From the IMG/VR virus record IMGVR_UViG_3300047160_003799: DNA of 64,000 bases; one strand, written 5' to 3'. This DNA is from a virus. The position numbers and the translations under genes are program-made. Below, in pieces: positions 39,378 through 61,983 of this stretch. The notes below the pieces were generated by a model. The model was not told the origin of the DNA, ran no database searches, and saw only the letters and a list, made by a program, of their open reading frames with translations. Within the stretch, counting starts at the first letter, position 1. Each line of letters starts with the position of its first letter.

Positions 39378-39741
39378 CGGGAACTGTGTCGCCTGCGGCA
39401 GTGATGTAGAAGATTGTGTTTCCCTCTTGAACTAGCTTATTGTCGAAGTAGTGAAAGGCGAAGAAGTAATCCTTAGCTCCTAGCTTGTGTAGTTCCGCTA
39501 GGACGCTGCCATCTAGTGTAGTGATGTGTGGGTTTTCAAGCACATTGCGGGAGGTTAGTGGATTTTTGGCACGCCCATAGCCGATGCCGTTCATGAGCTT
39601 GGCGCAGAACCGTTTGGTCTGAGCATTGGTGGCTTTGTGCTCTATCTGTCTCTGAAAGTGCAGTATGGCCTGACGAAGCTTCATCTCTTCAAGGTTCGCT
39701 TCCAGTAGCTCTCTGAGCTTGAGGTTGACGTGTTCTCTCAT
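39367..39741 (-). CDS. leader-A family protein (MREHVNLKLRELLEA...), 124 aa
   Basis: ORF track 39367..39759; motif starts at second Met (39741), which abuts the upstream gene stop. Confidence 0.5.
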   Translation of the reverse strand: MREHVNLKLRELLEANLEEMKLRQAILHFQRQIEHKATNAQTKRFCAKLMNGIGYGRAKNPLTSRNVLENPHITTLDGSVLAELHKLGAKDYFFAFHYFDNKLVQEGNTIFYITAAGDTVPDEE

Positions 39742-40706
39742 GGCTGCTCCGCGAACCACCAGTCAATGTTTCCTGCATTCATCTTGAGATAGACATCTTG
39801 ATCTACCTCGTAGACGGACAATGTAAACAATCGCCCGCCTCTCGTGACCACGACTGAATGCCTTGTTGCAGGATCTACTCCAATACGTACTGAACCAGTG
39901 AAGAGCGGAGCATGTCCCTTTACGGCCTCTGGTTCTATATCCATCTCTATCTCGTGCATACGGAATGGATCTAGAACAACGGCCAGGAAGGTCTCGCCCT
40001 CATGAGGCTCTGGTGGCGTGCCTCTGTCACCACGAGTCGCGGAGTGTGCAAGAGGATTCTCCACAAACTCTTTGACCGCTGCGATGAGAGCGCGAGCTAG
40101 GTGCGTCGTCTCGTCAAGCTCTTCGTGCTTCTGGAACTGCCACTTCTTCTGGAGCTTGTCGTATCCGATTCCAGCGAGCTGCTGAGGACTTGCTTCGTTA
40201 AGCAAATGGAGCTTTGAGTGAGCTTCCTCGATGGCGTGCTTCATGCCCTGCCAACGATGACGAGGAGAGCCAAGATACAGCTCCCACCTTCCAAGGCCAT
40301 TTCCATGACGCAAGGAGTAGGAGTAGTCAGTAGGTTCCACCTCTTCGGATTCAGCGTGCTTAGCTCCATAGAGCGTCAGCTCAACCAAGCCACCAGTAGC
40401 GAAGTTCTCTCCGTTCTCCAGCACGTAAGGCGAGCCCTTGGCTAGTGAGATCTGGACCTGGTTGAACCTTCCACCGAAAGCACCCCTGATAATGAAGCGT
40501 GAGTCATGGTACTGGCCGATGGCTATCGGCTCCTTATCCGACTGATGGATGACATGCCCGCCCATCACGGCAACAGCACTATCAAAGAAATCGTTGGCGT
40601 CCTCGTAATGCGGCTTCTCAGGTACGCCTTGAGGTGGCTCAACTGCTTCTCTGATAGAGATAGAGCCTTTGATGATGCGAGCTACGGTTTCATCCAGTTC
40701 TCGCAT
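39738..40706 (-). CDS. leader-B family protein (MRELDETVARIIKGSISIREAV...), 322 aa
   Basis: ORF track. Confidence 0.5.
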   Translation of the reverse strand: MRELDETVARIIKGSISIREAVEPPQGVPEKPHYEDANDFFDSAVAVMGGHVIHQSDKEPIAIGQYHDSRFIIRGAFGGRFNQVQISLAKGSPYVLENGENFATGGLVELTLYGAKHAESEEVEPTDYSYSLRHGNGLGRWELYLGSPRHRWQGMKHAIEEAHSKLHLLNEASPQQLAGIGYDKLQKKWQFQKHEELDETTHLARALIAAVKEFVENPLAHSATRGDRGTPPEPHEGETFLAVVLDPFRMHEIEMDIEPEAVKGHAPLFTGSVRIGVDPATRHSVVVTRGGRLFTLSVYEVDQDVYLKMNAGNIDWWFAEQP

Positions 40707-41067
40707 AGAGCTTCGTCACCTTCGAGTCGTTGTGCCCATCGTAGCGGGCTTCTCGGATCTCTATCTGGTGCCCACGGGCCGTTCGGAAGAGTTCGATTAC
40801 GCCCTCAGCGTAGACGTTACCATTCGTCCTCACAGGAATAGAGACCCTGTAGAGGGAGATCCTAGCTGGATCTGGTGACTCGAAGAGATTGAAGGAGAAG
40901 CGATCAAGAAGACTAGCCGCTTCTGTAAGACGCGCAATCGGGCCGATGAGCGCAGCACGCAGTTCAAGCTGCATGGCGTGGATCATCTCGTTCTCGAAGG
41001 GTGTTACCTGCACCCCTGCAACTTCAAGTAGCTGGCGAGACAAAGCTCTCAGGTTCTCCTGGCGCAT
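40690..41067 (-). CDS. hypothetical protein (125 aa) with degenerate leader-A-like N-terminus (MRQENLRALSRQLLEVAG)
   Basis: ORF track. Confidence 0.4.
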   Translation of the reverse strand: MRQENLRALSRQLLEVAGVQVTPFENEMIHAMQLELRAALIGPIARLTEAASLLDRFSFNLFESPDPARISLYRVSIPVRTNGNVYAEGVIELFRTARGHQIEIREARYDGHNDSKVTKLYARTG

Positions 41068-41136
41068 GGATGGACCTCACTAGAAACGAAGACGCCCGAA
41101 GCCACAGTATATGTAGCTTCGGGCGCCAGTTAGAAG

Positions 41137-41589
41137 TCACTCTTCTTTTGAGAAGTAGCCGTATACGCAGCGCGTTCCGCCACGAGTCGGATCGTGAGTG
41201 TCGTGCGGCTTGCCGTCGATGACGGCTACGATGTGCTTGCTCACGCTCACGATGAGCCGCCCCTTGGGCAGCTCGCTCTCCTTGAGGTGGACCTTGCAGC
41301 CTGAGCCGATGAACATCGTCGGGGTCCACTTCCAGCCCCATGCATCGAGAAGCCTGTGGATCGTCGCCTTGTAGACGCCAGAGCGGGCACTTGACTTCCC
41401 GCGACGGCGCTTACTGCGGCGCTCCTTCTTGGCGCACTCGTTGATGGCGTCGTAGACCTCTTGGTAAGGCTTCTCGCTGGCGATTGCGATTGCGCGACAC
41501 ACGCAATCGCCAGTCGCGCCGCTGTAGCCAGCCTTCCGACGCCCTCCGTCGTTGTAGACGAAGTTCTTCGTCATGAAGTTCTCTACCAC
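41137..41589 (-). CDS. hypothetical protein (150 aa), conserved Cys/His (possible peptidase-like)
   Basis: ORF track. Confidence 0.5.
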   Translation of the reverse strand: MVENFMTKNFVYNDGGRRKAGYSGATGDCVCRAIAIASEKPYQEVYDAINECAKKERRSKRRRGKSSARSGVYKATIHRLLDAWGWKWTPTMFIGSGCKVHLKESELPKGRLIVSVSKHIVAVIDGKPHDTHDPTRGGTRCVYGYFSKEE

Positions 41590-42050: not shown

Positions 42051-42215
42051 AGAACCAGGTTGCTAGGAGACGATCTCCTCACATCACAACCTAGACACAT
42101 TATATCATGTGCTCGATAATACAAGATAGAGACAGAGATTTTCTAAGTGGCTAGTGTACAAAGAGAAAGGACAGTGTAGGAGTTCTACACTGTCCTCAAT
42201 CGTAACTGTCCTGTT

Positions 42216-43652: not shown

Positions 43653-44084
43653 CTATACCAGAGCCGAAGGCGGTAGAAGGTCAAAATCTACTAGGTAGCC
43701 TCGAATTGTGGTTCGACCTTCTTTGATAGCTTTCCAAAGCCTATGCCTTCCGTCAATTACGTCTGGCCCCTTGTGGTCGATACCGACGAGTATCGGATAG
43801 TCGAGAAGGGATTCCTGCGCACGAAGAGTGAAGGCAGGCGTGCCATCTCGTTCGTCAGAGAGTTTACCTTTCGTGAAGGTGTGTGCGACAAGGTCGATTG
43901 GCAGCTCTTGCAGAGGATAGTTCTCTTGAGCCCAATCGAACAGCGCAGAGACGTGGTACTTCTTGCCGTCGTCGTGCCTATATGAAGACCGCTGGAAACG
44001 CTCAGTGCCGACAAGCTCGGACACGATGCGTTCGGGATCGTAGCCCCTTAGCGCGCCATTGATAGCTGCTCTGACGGGGTTCAT
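43653..44084 (-). CDS. ParB-like nuclease domain protein
   Basis: ILVGIDHKGPDVIDGRHRLWKAIKEG matches ParB/Srx DGxHR signature; start trimmed to MNPVRAA abutting the upstream gene. Confidence 0.55.
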   Translation of the reverse strand: MNPVRAAINGALRGYDPERIVSELVGTERFQRSSYRHDDGKKYHVSALFDWAQENYPLQELPIDLVAHTFTKGKLSDERDGTPAFTLRAQESLLDYPILVGIDHKGPDVIDGRHRLWKAIKEGRTTIRGYLVDFDLLPPSALV

Positions 44085-45133: not shown

Positions 45134-45992
45134 AGACCACTATCTGCTGTCTCGGAGAGAAGAGAGCAATGACTTGCCACATCTTCTGAGCCGTGAATGT
45201 GAAGCGGTTGCGATGCTTCTGGTTGATCCTGATAGGCGTGATGATCTCGTTCTCACCGACCTGCTCTGGCGTTGAACCTGGAACTGCTGGGTTGACACGT
45301 GAGCGCCCGAGCGAATCGAAGTTGACACCGTAGATGTCGTAGAGCCCTTGGTCAGTAACAGGGCCAGAAACGCTTGTCGTGAACTGCTGGTGCAAGTACG
45401 CTTGGAATTCTGGATCGTTCACGTCCGCTGGCTTACCCTTCCAGTTGAACGGCGGATATTCTGGTGACGGGTATGGTGGTGGAAGGTTCCTATCGACAGG
45501 CGAGAACGGGTAGTCGGAGAACTCGTTGACGTAGCCTGCTGGCGTTCTCTTTGGCTTGCAGCACGGTGGCTTCGGATAGTCGATTGAAACGACGCACATC
45601 CCGTAGCCGTTCACCGTAGGAATGCTGTTCGGTGTGATGTACCAGAAAAGCTGCTGCCATGGCGAATGAAAACGTACGCTGCCTACAGGAATCGTGAACG
45701 ACTGGACAGGGATGGTCTTTGAGAAAGGGTCAGGCCAATTAGGAATGGCTGTGTCAAGCTCGACGTAAGGCACGTGCTGCTTATCTAGCAGATACTTGAC
45801 CTTATCCATCTCATTCGCATAGACAGCTCTGAACGCCCCATCTAGATCATGGGTCTGCTTGAGCTGGAGCTGCTGGTCGTACTCTTGAACCTGGTTAGTG
45901 ATCGCGAGTTTCTGGCTGTTCCAGGCTTGGTAGGCAGCTTCGAGATTATCTTCGGCAGAGGGCATCGATGATCTCCCTTGGGCTCTCACCAA
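45114..45992 (-). CDS. hypothetical protein (292 aa)
   Basis: ORF track. Confidence 0.5.
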   Translation of the reverse strand: MVRAQGRSSMPSAEDNLEAAYQAWNSQKLAITNQVQEYDQQLQLKQTHDLDGAFRAVYANEMDKVKYLLDKQHVPYVELDTAIPNWPDPFSKTIPVQSFTIPVGSVRFHSPWQQLFWYITPNSIPTVNGYGMCVVSIDYPKPPCCKPKRTPAGYVNEFSDYPFSPVDRNLPPPYPSPEYPPFNWKGKPADVNDPEFQAYLHQQFTTSVSGPVTDQGLYDIYGVNFDSLGRSRVNPAVPGSTPEQVGENEIITPIRINQKHRNRFTFTAQKMWQVIALFSPRQQIVVYDTRCS

Positions 45993-47244
45993 AGATGATC
46001 TTCGCTACGACTGACGAAAGGGACTCACCAAGATCCTTCGGATAGAACCACTTCATTGTTTCGTGACGAAGCTGCTTGTCGTGTCGCCAACGCACTTGAG
46101 CTGCATAAACATACTGATCTGGGTTTCTGACGCCCATACGCGAGAGCCCACCCTTGAGTAGATCTACAAGCCGCTCTGCGACGACTCTGCGCTTCGCAAA
46201 CATCGACCACTTACCATCGCCTGGTACGTTAGGCGTGACTTCTTCGATCTTCCTTCCAGCCGATGAGTGCTTGAGGAGACCGTCAACAAAGGCAGCGTCG
46301 GGACCACCACCAAGGGCGGCGCCTACTCCATGTGTGCTCATAATCTGCGTGCCAAGCGGTCGAAGACCAGACTTCTCTCTGAGCTGCTTGACGTTTTTGA
46401 TCGTGATCCTATAGATAGGTGGCCTATCGTCGCCCTCGACTTCGTGCTGGCGCCTCTGGCTAAAGTTCTCGCACCAACTGTTAGGGCACTTGATGAGCGA
46501 TGGATCGTTCATCTTCTCGTCGGCTGTATTACGAGTACGACGAGCTAGAGGATGGTCACACTTTGGGCAACGGATGTCATCGTCCTGCGCTTCGTCCATA
46601 GCTTCCTGCTTCCCGATGTAGTCAGCTAGCCAGCGAACCTGTTCAAGCGTATGCTGCCCTTTACTCTTGTTAGCTAGATCCTTCTCGACGGCATCCATAT
46701 CACCGTCGTGACTAGCGTATAGGCAAAACACTTCTGCAAAATCTTCTTGCGGATGAGCCTGAGCGTACTTACTGACGAAGCTCGTATCGTTCGGTTTGAC
46801 GCCTGGCTTGCGCTTGTAAACCTTGTGGTAGTCTCCAAACAAGGAGAGGAACTCAGGGCTGCGCCGTACTTCATCAGAGATCTTCTGCGTAAGAAACTTG
46901 TGCCCTAGCTCGTGCATGACCAGGTTGAGCAAGCCACCTTTGACTGAACCTGGAAAGTTCTTATCGCGCTTGTCTAGGTAGACAGGCTGGCCTTGATCTG
47001 ATGCCTCACTGCCACCGCGAGTCGGTTCAATGCGGTAGTCTAGCTCAATACCGAGCCGTTGGAGCTTGGCATCAGCTTCGGCTTTCAAACGCTCCAGCTC
47101 TCTAGGCATCAAGGCGGCTCCTGTTGCAACCACCGACGACCGCAGAGAGCACACCATCGGTTCGGTATGAGATCCTCGTAGTGCTTCTGCTTCGGCTTCT
47201 CTGTTAGAAACGAGCGGACATACATCTCGTGACCTTTGGGGCAA
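45946..47244 (-). CDS. SprT/Wss1-like or DUF4157-like HExxH metallopeptidase-domain protein with Zn-ribbon
   Basis: LLNLVMHELGHKFL plus CPKCDHPLARR...CPNSWC. Confidence 0.45.
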   Translation of the reverse strand: MPQRSRDVCPLVSNREAEAEALRGSHTEPMVCSLRSSVVATGAALMPRELERLKAEADAKLQRLGIELDYRIEPTRGGSEASDQGQPVYLDKRDKNFPGSVKGGLLNLVMHELGHKFLTQKISDEVRRSPEFLSLFGDYHKVYKRKPGVKPNDTSFVSKYAQAHPQEDFAEVFCLYASHDGDMDAVEKDLANKSKGQHTLEQVRWLADYIGKQEAMDEAQDDDIRCPKCDHPLARRTRNTADEKMNDPSLIKCPNSWCENFSQRRQHEVEGDDRPPIYRITIKNVKQLREKSGLRPLGTQIMSTHGVGAALGGGPDAAFVDGLLKHSSAGRKIEEVTPNVPGDGKWSMFAKRRVVAERLVDLLKGGLSRMGVRNPDQYVYAAQVRWRHDKQLRHETMKWFYPKDLGESLSSVVAKIIFGESPREIIDALCRR

Positions 47245-47336: not shown

Positions 47337-47816
47337 TCATGGCCGTGGTTGTCGTAGCTGTACTAGTCCAGCAGGAGGCGGTGGAATAGAGTGAGCAATG
47401 ATCTCAAGCGTCTGGTGGAATGGAGCGTGTGAGATGTCGAATACGGTGTGGTCGCGCCATAGGCGGAACGGAAAATTGTTGCCTGTCGCGTACTCTATAG
47501 TCCACACAGAATTGGCATAGTGAAACGTGATCTCGCCAACAACCGAACCTCCAGGGGGCGGAAGATAGGATGGTCTTGTCGTTGTAAGAAGTCTGACGAA
47601 GTCAAGGATCCAGTCAAGTTGAATGCTTCTGTAAGGGTTACGGTAAGGCAAAACAGGATTGTCATACTGGATCCTAGCCGCTATCCGAGCGATTCGCATC
47701 GGATGCGTTGGATCTTGGAGCCAGTGCTTGAGGGCTTGCTCCGTTCGATAGCTGATAGCTTCTAGGAGCGTAAGCCTGACGTTCTCACTCATCGAAGCTC
47801 CTAGTAGGAGTACCAA
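47337..47816 (-). CDS. hypothetical protein (159 aa)
   Basis: ORF track. Confidence 0.5.
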   Translation of the reverse strand: MVLLLGASMSENVRLTLLEAISYRTEQALKHWLQDPTHPMRIARIAARIQYDNPVLPYRNPYRSIQLDWILDFVRLLTTTRPSYLPPPGGSVVGEITFHYANSVWTIEYATGNNFPFRLWRDHTVFDISHAPFHQTLEIIAHSIPPPPAGLVQLRQPRP

Positions 47817-48703
47817 ACAGATTCGTCTGGTGGGGCGCCGTCTGCCTGCACTTCAACGGCGAACTCCCCATAAAGTGAACGAAAGATACGGATATCGGTA
47901 CGAAGACCCGTCAAGGTAATGTGATTGCCCCAGACCTGGTGCCAGATACCTGCTGGCTTAGTTTCGTCATCGTGGAAGAAGCCGAAGACTTCGTGAAGAA
48001 GATCATGCAAGGTGTCGAATGCAGCTTCTTCATTACTTGACGGCGCATGTTTCATCCATACGAGGATACCAGTAGCGAGCTTGCCGAAGAAGCCTGGATC
48101 CACTGGATCAAATCTCGGTTGAGAAGGGATCTTGACCTTCGCCTTGATCTCTGTGATCGGCTTGGCAAGCGGGCGTGCCCAGCGCTTGACCTTATCCTGC
48201 TCACCTACGACAGAATGGCTGTATACGAGGATGTAGTTAGATGATTCTGGAATGAAGTTGAAGGTGATCTCCGTATCACTGTTCGGAACGGCTGGAGTCA
48301 GCTTGACGCGAATGGAGAACTTTGCGCCAATAGCCTTCTCACTCGTTACCTTGAAACCATTGGCGTTTGCGATACCGTTGATTTCTTGGAGAACAGCGTT
48401 TTCATCCATCCCTTTCGTCTTCTCAGCAATGGCACGAAGCTTATCTTTGAGATCATTCTCGAATCTCAGATCGCGCGCAGCCTCTTCTTGTGGCTTGTGC
48501 TGTTCCTTTTCTCTTTCTTTCGCTTTGTCTGCCATCCACTGAGCCCAGAGCGCCTTGGCACAGCCAGGACAAATGCCGTGCGTTGTCGGTTCTCCCTTTG
48601 TCGTACCACCAGGGAGATCCAGATCAACTTTGCACCAGGCACAGATCTTCTTGGCCTCTAGCAAGAGCTTGAGCTTGAGCCCTACGTGTTCGCGCTCCCG
48701 CAT
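47801..48703 (-). CDS. leader-A family protein with Zn knuckle (MREREHVGLKLKLLLEAKKICAWC...CPGC)
   Basis: ORF track. Confidence 0.55.
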   Translation of the reverse strand: MREREHVGLKLKLLLEAKKICAWCKVDLDLPGGTTKGEPTTHGICPGCAKALWAQWMADKAKEREKEQHKPQEEAARDLRFENDLKDKLRAIAEKTKGMDENAVLQEINGIANANGFKVTSEKAIGAKFSIRVKLTPAVPNSDTEITFNFIPESSNYILVYSHSVVGEQDKVKRWARPLAKPITEIKAKVKIPSQPRFDPVDPGFFGKLATGILVWMKHAPSSNEEAAFDTLHDLLHEVFGFFHDDETKPAGIWHQVWGNHITLTGLRTDIRIFRSLYGEFAVEVQADGAPPDESVWYSY

Positions 48704-48743
48704 GGCTAATCCTTCCTACGGAATAGAGACTTGCTCATAGCGA

Positions 48744-51954: not shown

Positions 51955-52808
51955 ACTTCCACCCTGAACCAAGGGCTAAAAGCAGCGATGCAGCACCATA
52001 GCTCTTGCCCTGTGTAGGTCTCGTGGCCTGTGAAGGGGTAGTGAGTCCATAGGAGATGAACGTCAGGGTGCGGTTTCTCTGCCTCAAAGTCACGAGTTGG
52101 ACTACCAACAGAATGTGGCTCAATCGCATAATCGCCAACAAGCCACGCTGACGGTCCCTTGTGCCACTTGTCTTCGATTTCTATAGCGCCAGGAAACAAG
52201 TGAAAGTCGCCAGCGACTTTCCGATGCTCGTACTTATAGTGCTTGAATGGATAGCCGATCATCTGGAGGAAGTACTGGAACGCGACCTTGGCAGTACTGC
52301 CATGAACGCGGATGATGGCGGTCGCTAGAGCTTTTGCTTGTATAGTGTCTCTGTTGCGCGATGAGATGTCGTGTATGGTGTCTCCAGTCTTAACAAGCTC
52401 GTCACGCTGAGCCTTCCAAGCGTCATACGCCTCATCAATCGACTGGTTCCTCTTGGCTACGATGGCTGCGTCACGGAGCTTGACGATATCGTTGAGGTAG
52501 TTGGAAGCGGTCAACAGATCGTTCTCATCCCAATCGGGGTATTGCTCACGAACGAATGGGATACCGACCATCTTGAAGTTGTAGATCGTCTCTGGGTAGA
52601 ACGTGAGCTTCTTGCCCGCTGCAAGCTGGCGAAGCCCGAAGGCGATGTCAGTAAGCTTCTCCTTGACCCAGCGAGGATCACGGCTATAGCGCCTGGCTTC
52701 CTGCTTAGAGATCTCGCGCTCGATCTTCTGGATGAAGCGAGCGATGTCGTCGTAGGGCTTGAGCCCATCGAGCAGGCGCTTGAGCTTGAGTCCTACGTGC
52801 TCAATCAT
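51951..52808 (-). CDS. leader-A family protein (285 aa from MIEHVGLKLKRLLDG)
   Basis: ORF 51951..52874 trimmed to Met 52808, which abuts the upstream stop. Confidence 0.55.
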   Translation of the reverse strand: MIEHVGLKLKRLLDGLKPYDDIARFIQKIEREISKQEARRYSRDPRWVKEKLTDIAFGLRQLAAGKKLTFYPETIYNFKMVGIPFVREQYPDWDENDLLTASNYLNDIVKLRDAAIVAKRNQSIDEAYDAWKAQRDELVKTGDTIHDISSRNRDTIQAKALATAIIRVHGSTAKVAFQYFLQMIGYPFKHYKYEHRKVAGDFHLFPGAIEIEDKWHKGPSAWLVGDYAIEPHSVGSPTRDFEAEKPHPDVHLLWTHYPFTGHETYTGQELWCCIAAFSPWFRVEV

Positions 52809-53100
52809 CTTGCACCCCCGCTGGCCGTCCATGAACGACGTTTGCAGCCCATCCTCGCTTCTCGGCTGCAGCAATGGCTCGTTGTATAACCTCTTTGAGC
52901 TTGACGCTGTTCCTGTCCATCAATGGAAACCAGCCAACGCCTCCGAAGATCCCCAAAGTAGGATCGTCCACAGGGAATGGCTCCCACTGGAGCATCGTGC
53001 CTCCACCAGATGGATACCAAACGTGCAGATTGATTGGCTTCCCAGGCGTAGGGTTAGCTTCAATGAGCTGTTTGACCTTCTCTCCAACGCACTCTCTCAT
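52801..53100 (-). CDS. small protein with degenerate leader-A (MRECVGEKVKQLIEA), 99 aa
   Basis: ORF track. Confidence 0.45.
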   Translation of the reverse strand: MRECVGEKVKQLIEANPTPGKPINLHVWYPSGGGTMLQWEPFPVDDPTLGIFGGVGWFPLMDRNSVKLKEVIQRAIAAAEKRGWAANVVHGRPAGVQDD

Positions 53101-53372
53101 GCGCCTGAGTCTCCCGTCGCTATCGTGCTCTTGATGGTCGGCGTGCCTTGAGGATGCTGCTTCGGAACGAACTGCCGTGGTGTCTGAGTCTTGGCCTTCT
53201 GCTTCTGAGCTTGACCCACCTGAGTTGGATCAACTGGTGGCTCTGGCTCTGGTGGTGGTGAGGCTTGCTGAGGAGCTGTTGACGGAGGCACGTTCTGGCC
53301 TTGCTCGATGATGGAGCGAGGGCTTGTGCCAGCGATGATAGCTGCAAGTACTTCGGATAGGTTCATCGCCAA
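53097..53372 (-). CDS. leader-B family small protein (MAMNLSEVLAAIIAGTSPRSIIEQ), Pro/Gln-rich
   Basis: ORF track. Confidence 0.45.
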   Translation of the reverse strand: MAMNLSEVLAAIIAGTSPRSIIEQGQNVPPSTAPQQASPPPEPEPPVDPTQVGQAQKQKAKTQTPRQFVPKQHPQGTPTIKSTIATGDSGA

Positions 53373-55066
53373 GTCTCCTGTCGATCATTGACCCACCAAT
53401 GCCAACGATCATCGGTAGGGCGCGGAGGCTCATCGATCAGGATGATGACGTAGCGTTCTGGCAAGCCCATGAAACGAGAGATCCAACGTTCTTGCTCTGG
53501 AGATCCTCCAGTCTGTCCACGGCGCCAGTTGGCGGCTGCTTCATCGAAAGCATTGACGTGGAAGCAGTGGATGATGGCTCTGTGCCCATCGTTGGTTCGT
53601 GGCTGTGCGAAGAAGACAGAACCAAGATCGCCCTGCGGCTGCGACCCTTGCCTATCCCAGACCGTGTGACTATCAGGTGTGTGCTCGTTCGCCAAGTACC
53701 GAAAATGACGGTGATTCGCTATGTTGGAAATCTCCGTAAATAGGTCAGCGAACGACACGGCGATTCTATAGTTGTGGATCTGGTCGCGGAGCTTGTTGAA
53801 GGCAGAAACAAGGCTTGCCTCGAACGCTGGGCTACGAGCTTCACTCAACTCGTCCTCATAGACGTTGAGCTTGAACTTAGAGGCTAGCGTCTTGCGAATC
53901 TCCTTCGAGATCGTCTCTGGATCTTCCGTCGTATCGACGTGCTCGTAGTTCTCCTGAGTTGGCAGAAGCTCGTGATAGAGCTTCGCAGCCTCGTGCTGGT
54001 AGTGCATCGCGCTCTCCTCTTTGCTCTTGGAGTAGCCGATGTCCATGCCAGAGCCGTAGTAGGTGAGGCCCTTGCCCTTCATGAGCCGTGAGAAGGCGAT
54101 CTCATCGCTTACGTCACAGTGGAAGATGATGTCTGGGCGCCGCATGTCGTGATAGGCCGCTTCGATGATGCCAGGATCGGCACCACGGAGCTTGTCCCTT
54201 ACGAGGCTCGTATAGACATAGCGGTCGGAGAGCACGATAGCGTTGCGCTTGAGCGCAGGTTCGATGACAGTCTCGTAACGTGCTACTAGATCCGAAGCAT
54301 GAATCAAGCTATACATCGTTGGCGTAAGGATGCGCTCGTCCTTCGCCTTTCTGATTGTATCCTTCAAGAGATCGGATGAGGCCCACTTCGTTGTTACGAC
54401 CTCGTGGCCTTGATCCTCAAGCCAGTTGACGAGCGCCTCTACCTGTGTGCTCTTGCCCGCACCGTCTATACCCTCGAAGACAATCAATAGGCCCTTGCCG
54501 CCATCATCGGCAAACATCTTGTCGGCCATGGCGGCAAGGTCCGATGTGTCCTCCGCCTCTTCGACCTTATGTGGGTTGAAAAGCTGGTGAGCAGCCCGAT
54601 AGACGTACTGGTTGCTGTGGAAGGCGAGCTTAGGCAAGTCCTCAAGAGGACACCAATAGCCGTCCTTCAAGTCCGAACCAGATTCGGCCTTCTCGTCGTC
54701 ACGAACTTCGCTGTAGAAGATGTGATCGTGTACGTCTCGGCCAGCTTCGGGGCTCTTACGAACGGTTAGCTTCGTAAGCTCGTCTGGCTTGCGCTTGATT
54801 GCCGTCTCTTCGCCTAGCTCACGGCAAGCGGCTTCTTCGGGGGTCTCGCCGTCGTCAACGTGACCGCCAGCGAAGAGCCACTCTTTGCCGTCCTTGAACC
54901 CGCCCTTGTGTCGGCCTATGAAGGTCTCGATGGCCTTACTAGTCTTACGCAGGAGGATGATGGAGGCGACGTGCTTTGGAGCATCCTTGCGTTCGAGCAG
55001 AGACTCAACAACCGCTGTAGCAGCCGTTCCGTGGAGGATAGAGGAGATCTGCTCGTTGAGGTCCAT
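53363..55066 (-). CDS. Nudix hydrolase - thymidylate (dNMP) kinase fusion protein with leader-B N-terminus
   Basis: Nudix box GGHVDDGETPEEAACRELGEETAI (GX5EX7REUXEEXGU); P-loop LLIVFEGIDGAGKSTQ and DRYVYTS (TMK DRY/F motif); ~200-aa extra C-terminal domain. Confidence 0.7.
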   Translation of the reverse strand: MDLNEQISSILHGTAATAVVESLLERKDAPKHVASIILLRKTSKAIETFIGRHKGGFKDGKEWLFAGGHVDDGETPEEAACRELGEETAIKRKPDELTKLTVRKSPEAGRDVHDHIFYSEVRDDEKAESGSDLKDGYWCPLEDLPKLAFHSNQYVYRAAHQLFNPHKVEEAEDTSDLAAMADKMFADDGGKGLLIVFEGIDGAGKSTQVEALVNWLEDQGHEVVTTKWASSDLLKDTIRKAKDERILTPTMYSLIHASDLVARYETVIEPALKRNAIVLSDRYVYTSLVRDKLRGADPGIIEAAYHDMRRPDIIFHCDVSDEIAFSRLMKGKGLTYYGSGMDIGYSKSKEESAMHYQHEAAKLYHELLPTQENYEHVDTTEDPETISKEIRKTLASKFKLNVYEDELSEARSPAFEASLVSAFNKLRDQIHNYRIAVSFADLFTEISNIANHRHFRYLANEHTPDSHTVWDRQGSQPQGDLGSVFFAQPRTNDGHRAIIHCFHVNAFDEAAANWRRGQTGGSPEQERWISRFMGLPERYVIILIDEPPRPTDDRWHWWVNDRQETWR

Positions 55067-55307: not shown

Positions 55308-55438
55308 AGAAACCTCCCTTGCCAGAAGAAGGAGACGCCCTGGACCGACCGTATTTCTACGGCCAGTCCAGAGCGCGGTCCCAAGGTGAATTGGTACTAA
55401 GTCAGGCTGTTTGTCAAGCCTAATCTTCTGAAAAGGTC

Positions 55439-58279
55439 TCAGGTCTCGTAGAAAGCCTTCATCTTCTTGATCCAGTAGTCGCTTTCTTCGGAAAACTCGC
55501 CCTCGTCCATCCAGTGCATCGCGTAGCCATTGCCAGTGCGACCGAACAAGACGACGTGAGGGAAAGCCTCTAGATCGTTCCGCTCCTCGTAATCCTCGCG
55601 CTCCTTGTCGGTCATGGAGGCAAGATCGAAGAGTTCATGGATAATATCTTCTCCATCTTCCAAGTGTTTTGTCTGATGTAGCTTGAAGCCTTCACGTTCA
55701 GCGATCTCACGAATGATATGACGCCATTCATGAGCGTTAGAGCGCTTGACGCGCCTCTTTAGCTCTTTAACGATCTCTTCTTCCCACTTAGGATTGTGCT
55801 TGCCTGCACCAGCAGGGAAGTCGAGTTCGTCTAGCTGCGACTCGTGCTTCTTCTTGTGGCAGTACGGATCATAGGGCGGGCAAGCTCCCAGAGCGTAGCC
55901 AACACGACCGAAAGGAGGCGGCACGATCTTGTCAGATTGGAGCTGCTGTGCTCTACCAGTTCCAGTTCTTCCTGTTCCCATGCCAGTTGGAGCGTGAGCT
56001 GTACCAACGGTCATGCCTGGTCCCATGCTGGAAGCCCCGCCTGAGCTTGTACCAGCCCCGCCAGCAGCTCCGCTAGCTCCACCTGCACCGCCAGCACCAC
56101 CGCCCCCACCTGCGCCTCCTCCACCGCCTCCCCCTCCACCAGCACCTTGCTCAGCTAGACGACGGGCGCGAAGAGCGGCAATCGCTGTATCCTTGAGTGA
56201 TTCTGGCTTAGCTTTCCTCTTCTCTTGCTTCTTCTGTAGGACGCTCTGGCCCATCATCGTGGTGCTTAGATCGGAACGCCACTGTGCAGGATCATCGCCA
56301 CGCATACGCATGAGCTTGAGGGCAGCATCGGACACCTTGCTGTCCTCGATGCCCTTCATCCTGTCAGCTACCTCAGTGCCCCACTTCTTCCTTTCGGTGT
56401 CACGCCTATACTGCCTGAGCTTCTCGATAGCCTTAGCTACGCTATCCTTCTTCGGTGGCCGTGGCCTCTGACCTGCTTCATGGCCGATGTGACTGTGAGC
56501 TTCGGACTCTGATTCGTTGAACTCGTGAAACGACTTCCGCCAGATCGTCCGATACGGTATGGGCGCATTGACAGCAGCTACGAGACTTGGCTGCTGGGAA
56601 GTGATAGTCATCTCGACTTCGTAGCTACCATGCGACGAATCGCTGTATAGCGCAATCTTTTCGAGAGCGTCCTTGAAGTCCTCATCCTTCGGTGGGTACT
56701 TCCATATAGGATGAACGTAACGACCCTTGCTTGCATCATATGGATCGTTCATCGTATGTGCGCTCGATTTCAACGGACCTTCAAAGTGGTAAGTCGAGGT
56801 CCGAAATAGCGATTCCATGTGATTAGGCCACGTTTTCGGATTGGCCTTGATTGTTTGATTCAAAATGTCTTTGAGATCGCCCTCGAACTCAAACCTATTG
56901 CTCTCCTCTAGCTCAGGCTCAGCTTCGAGGTCGAGCGCAGCTTGCCACTTCGCCTTCTCCTTGCGATGACGACGTACAGCATCATCGTCGCCACGATACT
57001 GAGCTTCCTTCTCCTCACGCTCGTGGTGAGCGATGAGAGCATTGAGATCGAGCGCTCCTGGGTTCATGCCTTGCGTCTGGATGGCTTCTTCTGGTCCACG
57101 GGAACGCATTGGCCCAGCCTGGCCTTGACGTTCAAGGTTACAGTCTGGGCAAATTAGGCCAGTCTCGCCAGGGTCATCATCACCTGCGCCAAAGCAGTGC
57201 TTGTCACAGTGAGCAGCCCCACATTCGGAGCACCAACCTGTAGCACGTCCTTGTTCTCTCTCCTTACGGGAGCAGAACTCACAGGCTGGCATCCTGGCTT
57301 CGTAGAAGGTGCTAGTTTCTGTTGAAACTGTATCAACAGAAGTGTCTCCCAGGAGGGGGGTCGCCACTCTTCGGAACTGGTTAGAAATACTCTCTTCCTT
57401 CTTCTTTGCATTCTCTACAGGCGTTGGCTTGCCAATAGGCTGGATCTTGATCGGCTCCTTCGGCTTCTTCTTAGGTTCAGACCCGCTTTTGGCTTCCCCT
57501 GGTGCAGAAGCGGGCTCAGATCTCTTCGTTACCATCTCAGGCTTGCTGAGAGCCTTGAAAGCCTTGCGGACCTTCTTGAGCTTCTTGTGAACCTCTGGAT
57601 CGAGACCCTTCAAGGTCTTCTCGTAATGACGGATCATGCCAGCGTGATAGTGATAGGCGTCCTGCTCCTGTTCCTTCGCTGCCTTGAGCGCCATCTTGAC
57701 GTGGTGCTGTAGAAGGGACACATGAGGATGGGCATCCTCATTGACGCTCTCTGAGCGGCTCTTGCCCTTCCTTGCTTTCCTATAGCCGAAGACAGCCTTC
57801 TTAGCTGCAGCGACAACGTTAGAGGCAGCTCCAGCAGCAGCAATGGTACGGCCAACAGGAGCGTGGAAAGGATGGAGTGTATGGAGCGTGTCTATGGCAG
57901 CTCTCTGCAGGTGGGTCTTGACAGTGGTCTCTGGATCGAAAGCTCCTACAACGGACTTGGCGCCATGGTAGATGGCGTGAGCAGCCACAGCATGTTGTAC
58001 ATGCGGCTGGATAGGCTTGGTGTGAGCATCGAGGTTCTTGAACATACCCTTCGACTGGTACGTAGATGCTAGAGCATGGGAACCAGTCGGAGGTGTGGGC
58101 GGATGATGAGGTGCTGGAGTTGGCTCTGGAGCAGGAGCGGGTGCTGCTCTCCTGGTTTGCCTCTTCCTGGCTTCATCGAGTGTCAGGGAGCCGTCAAGGA
58201 CGGCTTGAATCGTATCCTCGAATTCATTGCACTCAGGCTCGGCCATAGTGATATCTCCATACGATACGAGGCGTGACAC
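55439..58279 (-). CDS. large protein (946 aa) with leader-B-like N-terminus, Cys-rich Zn module and a ~40-residue poly-Gly/Ala tract
   Basis: ORF track; EDTIQAVLDGSLTLDEARK; CEFCSRK...CSECGAAHCDKHC...CPDCN; GAGGGGGGGGGAGGGGGAGGAGGASGAAGGAG. Confidence 0.55.
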   Translation of the reverse strand: MSRLVSYGDITMAEPECNEFEDTIQAVLDGSLTLDEARKRQTRRAAPAPAPEPTPAPHHPPTPPTGSHALASTYQSKGMFKNLDAHTKPIQPHVQHAVAAHAIYHGAKSVVGAFDPETTVKTHLQRAAIDTLHTLHPFHAPVGRTIAAAGAASNVVAAAKKAVFGYRKARKGKSRSESVNEDAHPHVSLLQHHVKMALKAAKEQEQDAYHYHAGMIRHYEKTLKGLDPEVHKKLKKVRKAFKALSKPEMVTKRSEPASAPGEAKSGSEPKKKPKEPIKIQPIGKPTPVENAKKKEESISNQFRRVATPLLGDTSVDTVSTETSTFYEARMPACEFCSRKEREQGRATGWCSECGAAHCDKHCFGAGDDDPGETGLICPDCNLERQGQAGPMRSRGPEEAIQTQGMNPGALDLNALIAHHEREEKEAQYRGDDDAVRRHRKEKAKWQAALDLEAEPELEESNRFEFEGDLKDILNQTIKANPKTWPNHMESLFRTSTYHFEGPLKSSAHTMNDPYDASKGRYVHPIWKYPPKDEDFKDALEKIALYSDSSHGSYEVEMTITSQQPSLVAAVNAPIPYRTIWRKSFHEFNESESEAHSHIGHEAGQRPRPPKKDSVAKAIEKLRQYRRDTERKKWGTEVADRMKGIEDSKVSDAALKLMRMRGDDPAQWRSDLSTTMMGQSVLQKKQEKRKAKPESLKDTAIAALRARRLAEQGAGGGGGGGGGAGGGGGAGGAGGASGAAGGAGTSSGGASSMGPGMTVGTAHAPTGMGTGRTGTGRAQQLQSDKIVPPPFGRVGYALGACPPYDPYCHKKKHESQLDELDFPAGAGKHNPKWEEEIVKELKRRVKRSNAHEWRHIIREIAEREGFKLHQTKHLEDGEDIIHELFDLASMTDKEREDYEERNDLEAFPHVVLFGRTGNGYAMHWMDEGEFSEESDYWIKKMKAFYET

Positions 58280-58331
58280 TCATCAGTAAAAGACTTAGCG
58301 CTCTATCTGCTCAAAGCGCCTGGATTCATTT

Positions 58332-58352
58332 AGCGCCCAAAGGGCGCTTTTC
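58332..58352 (+). terminator. hairpin AGCGCCC-AAA-GGGCGCT followed by TTTTCTG (terminator-like in plus orientation) inside a 208-bp intergenic gap
   Basis: Read directly; gap 58280..58487 also contains an AT-rich stretch (58380-58470) likely carrying the promoter for the 946-aa gene. Confidence 0.35.
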
Positions 58353-58487: not shown

Positions 58488-58724
58488 CTACTTCTCTATG
58501 ACTGGATCCTTGAGTGATAGACTCTTCCTCGCTGCTTGGATCGACTTCCTCAGATCTTCCTCTGTATGCTCATCCATTCCGATAGCTAGGTGCCTTGCTC
58601 CATCTGGCATATCTGCTAGCAACTCACCTATGGTACGTGCTGACTTCGTGTGATCGAAGGTGAGCACGAGTATTCCATCGTGTTGAGTTACTGTGAGTCC
58701 GAGCTTAGACAAGTCGCCTAGCAT
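58488..58724 (-). CDS. hypothetical protein (78 aa from internal Met; ORF track 58488..58814)
   Basis: Trimmed so that it abuts rather than overlaps 58729..59181. Confidence 0.4.
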   Translation of the reverse strand: MLGDLSKLGLTVTQHDGILVLTFDHTKSARTIGELLADMPDGARHLAIGMDEHTEEDLRKSIQAARKSLSLKDPVIEK

Positions 58725-58728
58725 ATGG

Positions 58729-59181
58729 TTACATTCCCTTTCTGAGATATCTGAGCTTGTTGGCTTGGTGTTGTGGTGTACTCGTCTTTGAGAAGAATGC
58801 GAACTTGATGTCATCTGGTACTGATACCGTGTGTATCCTCGTTGGATGATAGTATGGGCTGGATGGATCCTGTGCTTGAGTCTGGAGGTTCATCTCATGG
58901 TATTTGAGCCATGCGGCTGCTGTCTCTGGCTCGTGCATAGCTCCACCCATTGTCCTAGCGGTATTGATGGATGCGGCTCCTAGCCTTAGATAGCGCTTGC
59001 CGAATACGGCTGATGGTTCGCCGTGAGAGCGGATAGCATTGGCTACCCACTTAGATACGGCGCCTGTGTCACCCTTCTGACCTTCACGCTGTAGTCTGCG
59101 CTGCTCTGCATCTGATTCGAGCAATGCGTTGATTACATCGTGAGGAGAGGTGCCTTTGATAATGGCATGAATCGGGTCCAT
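58729..59181 (-). CDS. leader-B family protein (MDPIHAIIKGTSPHDVINALL...), 150 aa
   Basis: ORF track. Confidence 0.5.
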   Translation of the reverse strand: MDPIHAIIKGTSPHDVINALLESDAEQRRLQREGQKGDTGAVSKWVANAIRSHGEPSAVFGKRYLRLGAASINTARTMGGAMHEPETAAAWLKYHEMNLQTQAQDPSSPYYHPTRIHTVSVPDDIKFAFFSKTSTPQHQANKLRYLRKGM

Positions 59182-59183
59182 AG

Positions 59184-60422
59184 CTATTCCTCAGCTATTA
59201 CATTCTTGCCGAAATGAGGGATGAGTGGCTTGCCCATGCAGGTCTTGTGAACGTATATGGGGCGCCCGAACTTCTTGCTTAGCACTTCGAGATGTACTAG
59301 TTGGGACATCATCCCCATGTTGCCACATACCTTGCAGGTACGCTTGCCCTCTGCTTCAAGTAGCTCTTTCAGCTTGATACGTGTGTATTCCATGGTGTGC
59401 TCCTTGAGCATGGCTTGAGCGCAGGCCCATGCGGATTGCCACGTGCGGTGCTTGTGGTTGCACGGCGTATCGCTCTTGCTCAGTCCTGCCCATCCTGAGC
59501 CAGAGTAGTGCCTGACGTGATCCTTGGCCTGTTCCCACGCTTTCTTATCTTTGTCCTCTGACTCGTGTTGAGCTGGAGGCGGTGTAGGTAGCTCGTAGTT
59601 GTATGCGAGGGCACGGACCCAATAGTATGGACCAACGATATCATCAGTCCTATCTGGTTCCTCGAACTCGTTCTCTACATCACGAGGGCGGTGAGGATTG
59701 TATGGATGCTTGTAGATAACTTGTACCATGTGTCGCTGTCGAGCTGTATCCCTGTAAACGATTGCGGTAGCGCTGCTGATGTTGGGATACTTACGCTGTC
59801 TGCGATTCTGTGGGAACTTGATAGAGAAGGCACCGATGCGCAGGCCATGGTCGCGTGGAGCACGCTCGTAGTGCTGTAGTAGCTCTACGAAGCTGTTGAC
59901 ACGTAGCCATTCAGCAATGGAGCTGCGCCCTTGTGGGCCTGGACCCACCTGCGCCATACGTTTCATGGCAGCATCGATGCGTGAAAGCATCTCTTGCTCA
60001 GCAGGCGTTAGCTCTGGCTGCTCACGAGCCTCTTGCACAGGGCGATGCAAGCGTTCCCATGTGGTCCAGTGGTTCGTGCTTACCTGCAGTTCGTATGGTG
60101 CGAGTGCTATGGCATGGCCTGTCGGTGTGCGGAAGAGCAGAACACGACGATCTGGGAAAGGTCGTTCTTCTTGTCGTAGATCTACTTGTGTGAGATACTG
60201 CCAATCCTTTGGAACTTTCCAGATACGGTCTTGAAAGTGTGGACCGTAGAAAGCGTTGTCCACAGCCCAATGGTATAGGCGCTCAGCCATGAGCGGCCCT
60301 TGAGCCCTCTCTTTCGAGAAGGCTTGCAGCCTGGTGATGAGCAGCGTATCCTCTGGCGTTAGCTCTGGCATCTTTCGAGCTTCGAGGAGCTGCCTCAGCT
60401 TGAGGCCAACGTACTCAATCAT
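59184..60422 (-). CDS. leader-A family protein (412 aa from MIEYVGLKLRQLLEA) with second leader-A-like copy (MEYTRIKLKELLEAEG) before a C-terminal Zn-ribbon module
   Basis: ORF 59184..60455 trimmed to Met 60422 (ATGA-coupled to upstream gene); internal copy at ~59349-59393. Confidence 0.55.
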   Translation of the reverse strand: MIEYVGLKLRQLLEARKMPELTPEDTLLITRLQAFSKERAQGPLMAERLYHWAVDNAFYGPHFQDRIWKVPKDWQYLTQVDLRQEERPFPDRRVLLFRTPTGHAIALAPYELQVSTNHWTTWERLHRPVQEAREQPELTPAEQEMLSRIDAAMKRMAQVGPGPQGRSSIAEWLRVNSFVELLQHYERAPRDHGLRIGAFSIKFPQNRRQRKYPNISSATAIVYRDTARQRHMVQVIYKHPYNPHRPRDVENEFEEPDRTDDIVGPYYWVRALAYNYELPTPPPAQHESEDKDKKAWEQAKDHVRHYSGSGWAGLSKSDTPCNHKHRTWQSAWACAQAMLKEHTMEYTRIKLKELLEAEGKRTCKVCGNMGMMSQLVHLEVLSKKFGRPIYVHKTCMGKPLIPHFGKNVIAEE

Positions 60423-60814
60423 GGCTGTCCACCCGCCGTATTGCGCCAATACCAATGCTCAGTGTTCGTCCACATTTCATTGGCGCTGGTATCAGCTAGC
60501 AAACGAATGTAGTGGTCGTTGCCTTGAGGCCAGTATGCAATAGCTACTGCATGATAGGCCGTATCTGGGTTGTGGAAGGCCACACGCTCGTTGAACTCAG
60601 CCTTGGTGTGGAGTGGATCGAATGGAACATCTGTGTTATCTATAGGATCGAAGTCACCAAGAACTTCTTCATGGTGTATCCACATATGTGTGGTCAGTTC
60701 TGTGAGATTGCGAAAACGGCCTTGGATAACTTGATATAGAGCTTTGACGACTTGGCCTGCAAAGCCAGTCGCTTCGAGTATTTGCTTGAGCTTTAGTGAT
60801 ACGTGCTCACGCAT
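60419..60814 (-). CDS. leader-A family protein (MREHVSLKLKQILEA), 131 aa
   Basis: ORF track. Confidence 0.5.
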   Translation of the reverse strand: MREHVSLKLKQILEATGFAGQVVKALYQVIQGRFRNLTELTTHMWIHHEEVLGDFDPIDNTDVPFDPLHTKAEFNERVAFHNPDTAYHAVAIAYWPQGNDHYIRLLADTSANEMWTNTEHWYWRNTAGGQP

Positions 60815-61165
60815 TCATTCGCCTTGGCTGTGTGGATCCTGATTCACGTAGCAAGAGATGCAGGTGTGATACTGGCCCTCTGGGATATCTCTGTTGCAGC
60901 CTGGGCACTTGTAAGCTGGCATGTGTCCGTTCGGCTGTGGGAACAGAGGTGGGCGAACAGGCAACCCTGGGATCGGAACCATTGGAACGAGTGGTGGAAT
61001 AAGTTGCATGATTGGCATTGGCGGATTGATTAGAGGCATGATGCCGTGACCTACCTCAAGCCTAGCGATGCTCAGCTCCGCATTTGCAAGGCGCGCTTCG
61101 AGCAGCGTAATACGGTCTATCAATACTTTCATAGTTGATACCAATGCCAATTCCGTCTCGTTCAT
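60815..61165 (-). CDS. coiled-coil / Pro-rich protein with C-terminal Zn-ribbon (CPGC...CISC)
   Basis: ORF 60815..61189 trimmed to Met 61165. Confidence 0.45.
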   Translation of the reverse strand: MNETELALVSTMKVLIDRITLLEARLANAELSIARLEVGHGIMPLINPPMPIMQLIPPLVPMVPIPGLPVRPPLFPQPNGHMPAYKCPGCNRDIPEGQYHTCISCYVNQDPHSQGE

Positions 61166-61596
61166 GTGACATCTTCCCTTCGTGTCCACGAGTATACGGT
61201 GTAACCGCCTTCTGGCAGTGCCCCTGGGTCATCTGCTTCTATGTAGTCAAACAAATAGACCCAGCCGTATTCCTCCCGTCGTGCATGACGTGTAAGTATG
61301 AACGTGGCGTCGGGGGATAGATCATCTATCCGCCAGACAATGCGTGGGCGCAGTGAGTTGATGTAGCTATCTCTGTTGAACAGAGGAACAGAGAGAGCTT
61401 CATTGTGTGCGAAACCATACTCGCGGCTAGTGAGTATGTTCCCCAGCTCGTCATGTTCCCAGCCCTGCGGCTTCTCTATCAGGGCCTTGATCCTGTTCTT
61501 TAGCTGCTGCTCCCATTTGTTCGCAGCTTGATGTTTTGGCCTACGCCCAGCTTCGAGCAATGCTCTGAGCTTGAGGTTGACGAACTCGATTGACAC
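61162..61596 (-). CDS. leader-A family protein (MSIEFVNLKLRALLEA), 144 aa
   Basis: ORF track. Confidence 0.5.
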   Translation of the reverse strand: MSIEFVNLKLRALLEAGRRPKHQAANKWEQQLKNRIKALIEKPQGWEHDELGNILTSREYGFAHNEALSVPLFNRDSYINSLRPRIVWRIDDLSPDATFILTRHARREEYGWVYLFDYIEADDPGALPEGGYTVYSWTRREDVT

Positions 61597-61599
61597 AGA

Positions 61600-61983
61600 T
61601 CACGACTTCGGCTTCTCCAGCTTGGGAGCTGGGCTTGGCTGCATGACCTTCTTGATCGCCTTGCCCTGGTGATGTGCTGCAAGCGCTGCTGCGATTTGGG
61701 CAGGCACAGTCTTTGGCTGAGCTGGTTTCATTCTAGGTGCGGACCAGCCGAAAGGACCAGACTGATGCTCTAGATCATGAGCAGCTAGATGAGCACCGAT
61801 GCGGATACCACGTACCTTACGAGCTGCACGTGTGAGATCCCCCTTGTTGTCCTTAGTATGCCCTGCACTTCTAAACCATCCGATTGACCTCTGTTCGTCA
61901 AGATACGAAGGATCGGTGAGTAGGAGAGCTTGTACAGTCTCCTGCACGCTTCGACCATTCATAACCTGATGGATAGCGTTCAT
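61600..61983 (-). CDS. leader-B family protein (MNAIHQVMNGRSVQETVQALL...), 127 aa
   Basis: ORF track. Confidence 0.5.
   Translation of the reverse strand: MNAIHQVMNGRSVQETVQALLLTDPSYLDEQRSIGWFRSAGHTKDNKGDLTRAARKVRGIRIGAHLAAHDLEHQSGPFGWSAPRMKPAQPKTVPAQIAAALAAHHQGKAIKKVMQPSPAPKLEKPKS

Follow-up and report, generated by a model that had tools for sequence, protein, structure and literature searches.

Why should proteins with nothing else in common carry the same short peptide at one of their ends? The question is raised by a block of genes in IMG/VR virus record IMGVR_UViG_3300047160_003799, of which a stretch of 64,000 nucleotides was analysed (the window). An earlier note on this DNA had pointed to an N-terminal peptide, leader B, on six genes of the block, and to a second, distinct peptide, leader A, on other genes of the same block; both peptides are indeed there. 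We call the former motif B, and find it to be a real, lineage-specific family of peptides of ~22 residues, located at the very N- or C-terminal end of proteins that are otherwise unrelated, and conserved at the protein level, as a recognition or targeting signal would be. The answer to which we give about even credence is that B is a modular protein–protein docking or targeting tag with one common partner, a function suggested by its sequence and by analogy with known systems.

Motif B is a family of terminal peptides

The family comprises six robust and three weaker copies, as follows (aa, amino acids).

61915..61983, minus strand: motif B, aa 1-23 of gene 61600..61983 (127-aa ORFan), MNAIHQVMNGRSVQETVQALLLT
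59113..59181, minus strand: motif B, aa 1-23 of gene 58729..59181 (150-aa ORFan), MDPIHAIIKGTSPHDVINALLES
54989..55066, minus strand: motif B, aa 1-26 of gene 53363..55066 (567 aa; NUDIX, thymidylate kinase and an unknown C-terminal region), MDLNEQISSILHGTAATAVVESLLER
53289..53366, minus strand: motif B, aa 1-26 of gene 53097..53366 (89 aa), MNLSEVLAAIIAGTSPRSIIEQGQNV
45949..46023, minus strand: motif B at the extreme C-terminus, aa 408-432 of gene 45946..47244 (432-aa Zn-metallopeptidase), SLSSVVAKIIFGESPREIIDALCRR, then stop
38691..38747, minus strand: motif B at the extreme C-terminus with helix 2 truncated, aa 211-229 of gene 38688..39377 (229-aa ORFan), HFENLIAQIIAGRDPRSIT, then stop
44004..44084, minus strand: probable motif B, aa 1-27 of the 143-aa gene starting at 44084 (phrog_17560, ParB-like), MNPVRAAINGALRGYDPERIVSELVGT
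40626..40706, minus strand: divergent B-like, aa 1-27 of gene 39738..40706 (322-aa ORFan), MRELDETVARIIKGSISIREAVEPPQG
58151..58246, minus strand: divergent B-like, aa 8-32 of gene 55439..58246 (935 aa), EFEDTIQAVLDGSLTLDEARKRQTR

We refer to these genes by their start coordinates (g61983 is the gene 61600..61983). The six genes of the earlier note lie on the minus strand where it had placed them, and four of its starts are kept; gene callers and Shine-Dalgarno positions move the other two, from 53372 to 53366 (MNLSEV..., 89 aa, where the gene call begins, with AGGAGA 7 nt upstream) and from 58279 to 58246 (MAEPEC..., following the 935-aa gene calls). Membership likewise stands for four genes (g61983, g59181, g55066 and g53366), g40706 and g58246 forming a divergent sub-pair. 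Three copies had been overlooked: the C-terminal ones in g47244 and g39377, and the probable N-terminal one at 44084, where the gene call begins MNPVRAA and the N-terminal peptide is MNPVRAAINGALRGYDPERIVSELV. With two of its six robust copies at the very C-terminal end of their proteins, B is a terminal tag and not the N-terminal leader that its first name had implied.

When the 35 residues at each end of 74 gene products (148 termini, 10,804 pairs) are compared all against all and without bias, the family stands out. Against a background with a median score of 16, a 99th percentile of 30 and best unrelated pairs at 37, the B pairs score 54, 49, 44, 44, 40, 39, 39 and 38. The top B pair unites the C-terminal copy of g47244 with g53366 (54; BLASTP 60% identity over 20 aa, E 0.004); g61983 scores 49 with g59181, and the C-terminal copy of g39377 scores 44 with g53366 and 39 with g47244. 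Four groups in all rise above 37, namely the leader-A family, one full-length paralogue pair, the C-terminal pair g52808/g45965 and the B family.

A leave-one-out scan of the whole six-frame translation with a BLOSUM-averaged profile (1812 segments, 105 k residues, reversed-sequence decoys) places each of the six core peptides at rank 1 among all segments, with scores of 15.6 (61983), 20.6 (59181), 21.5 (55066), 22.1 (53366), 20.5 (C-terminus of g39377) and 23.0 (C-terminus of g47244, the highest of all); non-members reach at most 13.0 and reversed decoys at most 11.4. This profile replaced a leave-one-out HMMER profile built from the peptides of the earlier note, which over-fits its five short sequences and recovered only 59181. 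The copy at 44084 scores 15.5 with the six-member core profile (best decoy 13.3) and just 8.9 in the leave-one-out scan; by its sequence it is probably a seventh family member. The scores of g40706 and g58246, 6.1 and 8.6, are within noise, with 32 and 11 non-members at or above them. Their mutual pair score of 41 (z 7.6) is barely over the noise ceiling of 37, and their aggregate likeness to the four robust N-terminal copies is weak (z 4.9); we treat the two as a putative divergent subtype of B.

Shuffled controls, against which the original alignment was to stand or fall, leave it standing: the sum of pairwise ungapped scores for the six N-termini first proposed is 438, as against 248 ± 14 in 400 shuffles (z 13.4; 0/400), and the core six reach z 20.4.

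Anatomy, position and predicted fold

The pattern originally written for the peptide, M-[DN]-x-I-[HN]..., matches only 61983 and 59181. Anchored on a single invariant Gly, the consensus reads [LF]-x-[ED]-h-h-A-x-I-I-x-G-x-[SD]-P-R-x-I-I-x-x-L-L (h, hydrophobic) or, in a shorter form, h-h-x-x-I-I-x-G-x-S-P-R-x-I-I-x-x-L-L, and spans ~22 residues. A sharp drop in conservation after residue ~25 had been foreseen and is found: similarity stops ~22-25 residues in, the mean pairwise BLOSUM62 score per column falling from +1.22 (G-9 to G+12) to -0.82, which is the random level (G+13 to G+59). Past 12-32 residues, BLASTP finds no similarity between B carriers.

No core copy is more than 2 residues from an end of its protein, the six proteins being 89-567 aa long; under uniform placement such an arrangement has a probability of ~1e-9. 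The Pfam NUDIX match in g55066 begins at residue 33 and so leaves the motif clear of the enzyme domains; in g47244, Peptidase_Mx is matched at residues 108-178, and the phrog_17560 match in g44084 starts past the motif. B is modular, with unrelated cargo (Nudix and thymidylate (dTMP) kinase, metallopeptidase, ORFans) beside the tag in every case. The smallest carrier, g53366, is motif B with a Pro/Gln-rich tail and nothing more, Pro making up 10 of the 30 residues after the motif. In g58246 the B-like copy is followed by a Pro-rich linker with the same proportion (10 of the next 30 residues).

AlphaFold2 models the N-terminal copy of 59181, with a 9-sequence alignment, as a helix at 3-8, a turn at K-G-T-S and a helix at 13-31, with a predicted local distance difference test (pLDDT) score of 94.9. 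The last 100 residues of g47244, modelled from the single sequence, end in a helix at 77-85, a turn and a helix at 90-98 (pLDDT ~72-75 over the last 20 residues). As pLDDT flatters short helical peptides, we take these models as statements of secondary structure only; at that level the N- and C-terminal copies are predicted to form the same helix-turn-helix.

Constraint on the peptide and not on the DNA

At identical residues of motif B, 39 of 95 codon pairs are identical (41%), compared with 32.5 (34%) expected from the codon usage of the block; the invariant Gly is encoded by GGT, GGC and GGA, Ser by AGC and TCT, and Arg by CGC, AGG and CGT. Nucleotide identity averages 42% over the motif and 32% at the third position, and BLASTN-short gives just 8-11-nt words, with no DNA repeat among the copies. 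Synonymous sites are near saturation, which places the constraint on the peptide and not on the DNA; since the peptide has nonetheless been kept, it is under purifying selection and its copies are old. A promoter, ribosome-binding site, RNA or recombination site is ruled out by this protein-level conservation together with the two copies at gene 3′ ends. Leader A differs from B in this respect: its codons are more alike than expected (54% vs 38%), which fits a more recent duplication or some added constraint at the DNA level.

Leader A and gene order

Leader A, M-[KR]-E-x-V-G-L-K-L-[KR]-x-L-L-E-A, starts ten genes, with weak versions on two more. It is predicted to be a single helix followed by a linker, where B is predicted to be a helix-turn-helix, and, of the 74 genes compared, only those of this block carry either peptide. 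The earlier note had B genes alternating or paired with leader-A genes, citing three places where one directly follows the other. All three junctions (61600/61596, 53097/53100 and 39738/39741) are where the note put them, but such junctions are not commoner than chance would have them, with 3 observed and 1.7-3.0 expected. Permutation of gene labels gives P 0.20 for B-then-A adjacency with the original gene sets and 0.65 with our extended sets, and P ~0.4 for A and B as neighbours in either order; gene order carries no signal of alternation or pairing. Leader-A genes form a tandem array of 6-7 consecutive genes (47801-53100, minus strand; P ~0.003 for the longest run).

Two copies of leader A are internal and in frame, one in g49667 (49017-49064, minus strand; aa 202-217, SREYVGLKLKQLLESV) and one in g60422 (59346-59390, minus strand; aa ~345-359, MEYTRIKLKELLEAE, followed by a Zn-ribbon). 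They are probably fusions of neighbouring leader-A genes, or else nested starts, and they indicate that neighbouring genes fuse in this block; the C-terminal copies of B may have the same origin. There is a faint likeness between the ribosome-binding region of g53366 and the codons that directly precede the g47244 copy, which we take as a hint only.

A third shared terminal motif is found at the C-termini of g52808 (51972-52019, minus strand; QELWCCIAAFSPWFRV) and g45965 (45153-45200, minus strand; QKMWQVIALFSPRQQIV), which score 52 with each other and are 56% identical over 16 aa by BLASTP; leader A is present on one of the two carriers, the other being without a leader. A common C-terminal domain on A and B proteins, suggested by eye from DQDVY-like endings, gained no phmmer support and was rejected. 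Beyond its leader A, g49667 (48744-49667, minus strand) has two segments resembling a helix-turn-helix (HTH) domain at aa 24-60 and 100-125, VMSRIHAGETVEEIAAKEGVSPKFV (weak HTH_23 match) and ILNGMHPSDIAQAHGIE; these have an outline like that of motif B, with scores within noise.

The gene block and its setting

Over ~38.3-62.6 kb of the window, all of the ~36 genes are on the minus strand and tightly packed, and nearly all are ORFans by Pfam and PHROG scans of the block proteins. Recognisable genes are the NUDIX and thymidylate-kinase fusion (53363..55066), the Peptidase_Mx-like Zn-metallopeptidase (45946..47244), the ParB-like protein (phrog_17560, with a DGRHR motif; start 44084) and a DNA-polymerase exonuclease subunit (phrog_403, g43614). 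On the same strand, the block is flanked by a tail-fibre-like gene (63005-63985) and by a gene for a 1134-aa beta-helix protein with PT linkers (34838-38242). The latter, which marks the downstream edge of the tag block, carries a number of long (SPPTPTP)n linkers, and its C-terminal region is by eye like a right-handed beta-helix; it has a weak match to an uncharacterised PHROG only, and is tailspike- or depolymerase-like.

Directly upstream of the first B gene, 61987-62280 (minus strand) encodes a protein of 97 aa that has a lipoprotein-like signal (LVAPGC) and, interspersed with Cys, two poly-His tracts. The 935-aa B-like protein g58246 (55439-58246, minus strand) has a zinc-finger-like segment rich in Cys, and also a ~35-residue Gly/Ala tract, GGGGGGGGAGGGGGAGGAGGASGAAGGAG; Zn-ribbon-like CxxC pairs recur in the block, in g48703, g61165, g47244 and g60422. 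Two hairpins occupy rare intergenic gaps of the block, one with a 19-bp stem between g58246 and g55307 (55335-55376, minus strand) and a GC-rich one upstream of g58246 (58297-58348), and may be terminators or processing sites. Elsewhere in the window, 7714-8100 (plus strand) and 8093-8476 (plus strand) are adjoining full-length paralogues, alike at both their N- and C-termini (scores 45 and 42), and 1152-1397 (minus strand) encodes a stand-alone 81-aa phage protein with a Clp_N domain (PF02861). Clp_N is the substrate- and adaptor-binding N-domain of Clp ATPases, and this protein is in principle a candidate for reading terminal tags.

Database searches and relatives

None of the nine B peptides has a Pfam match at E up to 10, and a PDB sequence search with motif B gave no match. 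A HMMER profile of B run against 1.84 billion representative proteins gave seven matches at E up to 0.001, five of them this phage's own. Neither of the remaining two is related: one is a repeat protein, the other a duplicated fragment that we take to be the C-terminal hairpin of glycerol-3-phosphate dehydrogenase (GpsA, P0007); the fragment is a generic alpha-alpha hairpin with a G-x-D-P cap. As some true B members fall below the profile threshold, diverged copies elsewhere would be invisible to it, and the absence of matches is weak evidence.

Other searches found no related phage either. No homologue of g59181 except itself was found in a search of 5.8 billion proteins, and the leader-A profile, against 5.8 billion proteins, found itself only. 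Searches of IMG/VR, JGI metagenomes and GTDB genomes with the leader-A DNA pattern gave the same phage and chance matches (in JGI several amidase-like VGLKLKxLLEA motifs, in GTDB all single), a protein search of IMG/VR gave no related phage, and GenBank phages searched with g47244 and g51127 gave nothing. The nearest homologues of the exonuclease g43614 are 58-68% identical and belong to unrelated phages of ~50 kb without A or B; a 503-aa protein (2689-4200) has relatives only at <=30% identity, in large phages. Identical proteins are found on short contigs from several soil metagenomes (ENA ERZ272572xx, JGI Ga03069xx), and these contigs are 99.9-100% identical to the window. The source genome is uncultured, phage-like and from soil, and the contig to which the window belongs has at least 71.6 kb. 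Being ~100% identical to the window, the metagenomic copies yield no information on the ratio of non-synonymous to synonymous substitution rates (dN/dS).

Motif B as a proposed docking or targeting tag

A short autonomous helical element, at a free terminus, with a linker, on unrelated cargo and under protein-level selection, leads us to the docking or targeting reading. Motif B is a self-contained peptide of ~22 residues, kept by selection on the protein and predicted to form two helices, the first of them short, joined by a helix-capping G-x-[S/D]-P turn. It is attached to one extreme end, N- or C-terminal, of unrelated block proteins, in several cases through a proline-rich or polar linker, and may have spread from gene to gene through duplication as well as through recombination or fusion where genes meet. 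We infer that B binds something, and that the same partner would recognise every tagged protein, candidates being a phage structure (procapsid interior, scaffold) or a hub protein of phage or host.

Several points weigh against this. The window holds no capsid, scaffold, protease or shell gene. A Nudix-dTMP kinase and a ParB-like protein would be unusual virion contents, and the block also includes the gene for a DNA polymerase exonuclease subunit. AlphaFold2 confidence is easily inflated for peptides of this kind, the two C-terminal copies could be recent fusion debris instead of working tags, and the databases hold no related phage in which B might be seen conserved.

Four known systems come closest. 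Protein kinase A (PKA) has in its regulatory subunit a docking and dimerisation domain, a terminal helix-turn-helix that pairs with the amphipathic helices of A-kinase anchoring proteins (AKAPs) on many proteins. This is the architecture that a pairing of B with leader A would require (cohesin and dockerin are a further analogue); the PKA domain is eukaryotic, has ~40 aa and shows no sequence similarity to B. The C-terminal helix-loop-helix of the P22 scaffolding protein, described by Sun et al. 2000 (PDB 2GP8), is reportedly the coat-binding domain. This terminal helix-turn-helix of similar size suffices to dock the protein, or foreign cargo fused to it, inside an HK97-fold procapsid. The P22 domain is basic and belongs to one protein, whereas B is neutral to acidic and is found on 6-9 proteins, and the PDB sequence search detected no homology between them.

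The capsid-targeting sequence (CTS) of T4-type phages is the only feature common to highly diverse internal proteins (IPI, IPII, IPIII and Alt), binds the prohead core and is then cleaved (PMC3012670, PMC7411985). It resembles B as a short terminal peptide that makes a protein–protein contact and is the sole common feature of diverse, fast-evolving, ORFan-rich phage proteins (PMC3012670, PMC7411985); B is found in just this way on otherwise unrelated proteins of one phage, counting both robust and weaker copies. The CTS has 10-20 aa, is strictly N-terminal and is removed by the prohead protease, whereas B is a predicted helix-turn-helix of ~22 aa at either end, C-terminal in 2/6 robust copies. 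B also has no sequence likeness to the CTS and has metabolic enzymes among its cargo.

Microcompartment encapsulation peptides are short helical domains fused via a disordered linker (PMC12339742, PMC4594438). Together with encapsulin cargo-loading peptides, they offer the likeness of a short N- or C-terminal helical element on unrelated enzymes, with a poorly conserved flexible linker and one shell or scaffold as reader (PMC4594438, PMC12339742). Motif B agrees with them in its terminal position, its predicted helices and its Pro-rich or polar flanks. Theirs are single amphipathic helices or short extended motifs encoded beside shell genes, whereas B is a two-helix hairpin in a phage, and no shell gene (BMC-H/T/P, encapsulin) was found in the B locus by Pfam and PHROG among the block proteins scanned.

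Alternative explanations

A special case of targeting, which we consider unlikely, is that B, and perhaps A, is a capsid-targeting propeptide that binds the prohead core or scaffold, loads its protein into the head for ejection and is cut off by a prohead protease after hydrophobic-hydrophobic-Glu. There is precedent in T4, where IPI-III and Alt have only their 10-20 aa N-terminal CTS in common and gp21 removes it, and in a giant phage, whose protease carries a C-terminal propeptide proposed as its prohead-targeting signal (PMC7411985, PMC3012670). The ends of several B copies read LLE/S, LLE/R, IIE/Q, AVE/P or LDE/A, and that of leader A LLE/A, all resembling the L/I-x-E and A-x-E sites of T4 type; h-h-E follows the motif in g59181, g55066, g53366, g40706 and g58246. 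The position of the block between tail-fibre-like and tailspike-like genes on the same strand is also in keeping. However, g61983 has no Glu at the site, the C-terminal copies would need a cut upstream of the tag, and by inspection there is no likeness to the T4 CTS (MKTYQEFIAE); the missing head and protease genes, the nucleotide-metabolism enzymes among the cargo and the replication gene in the block count against this special case as well.

About as unlikely, in our judgement, is that B has no present common function and consists of gene ends retained after serial duplication, fusion and replacement of gene bodies. The block is evidently fluid, as the internal leader-A copies in g49667 and g60422 and the tandem A run attest, the C-terminal B copies look like fusions, and the weak likeness of the g53366 ribosome-binding region to the codons preceding the C-terminal copy of g47244 points the same way. 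Yet the peptide has been kept despite near-saturated synonymous sites, where neutral remnants of that age should have decayed, and the best-conserved copy is a C-terminal one, that of g47244.

It is quite improbable that A and B are a cognate pair, in which the B hairpin, possibly as a dimeric four-helix bundle, binds the amphipathic leader-A helix, so that A- and B-tagged proteins assemble. Consistent with such a pair are the confinement of both tags to one block, their complementary predicted forms (a single helix with a linker, and a helix-turn-helix) and the existence of g53366, which is B with a disordered tail only; chance-level adjacency of A and B genes and unequal copy numbers (10-12 A against 6-9 B) speak against it.

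Very improbable is a known fold or signal, be it the first two helices of a DNA-binding HTH domain, a secretion signal, or a leader of the double-glycine type or of a ribosomally synthesised and post-translationally modified peptide (RiPP). The pattern h-h-x-x-h-h-x-G-x-S-x-x-x-h-h does occur in HTH domains (as in the HTH_23-like segment of g49667) and in the GpsA C-terminal hairpin (P0007). We rejected the HTH domain since no HTH family matches any B peptide at E up to 10 and the PDB search found none; no third (recognition) helix follows B. A signal peptide was rejected for want of a hydrophobic core, and a double-glycine or RiPP leader because the residue before the invariant Gly varies (A, K, N, H, F), no GG site is present, conservation runs past the Gly, the cargo is of 89-935 aa and includes large enzymes, and the window has no transporter.

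Extremely improbable, finally, is that B acts at the nucleic-acid level, as a recombination site or as an RNA element of translation initiation or regulation, or that it is due to chance: most copies are at gene starts, but the low nucleotide identity, the freely varying synonymous codons and the two copies at gene 3′ ends oppose the former, and the shuffle and decoy controls exclude the latter.

Implications

The principle of an address peptide shared by hypervariable phage proteins is known. What is new is this particular peptide, with its form of two helices and its use at either terminus, and the occurrence of two different tags on ~twenty genes. A bolder proposal, which we regard as rather unlikely, is that two orthogonal terminal tags (the A helix on 10-12 proteins, the B hairpin on 6-9) sort or assemble ~twenty accessory proteins, either at separate sites of a phage-built structure (head interior, replication compartment, condensate) or through A-B binding into combinatorial complexes. 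If true, this would be a self-encoded, programmable protein-addressing system of a kind not known to have been described for any phage.

Even if motif B were mere duplication debris, it would be a clear case of gene-boundary recombination building the accessory-gene arrays of phages. If B is a docking or targeting tag, as we favour, the idea of a shared targeting peptide of T4 type would be widened to a new architecture, to either terminus and to enzymes (the Nudix-dTMP kinase fusion and the metallopeptidase), and short autonomous tags of this kind would be useful as engineering parts for cargo loading. For the phage itself, B working as an address tag along with leader A would provide a sequence handle on ~twenty otherwise unannotatable ORFans, which would be predicted to share a place or a partner.

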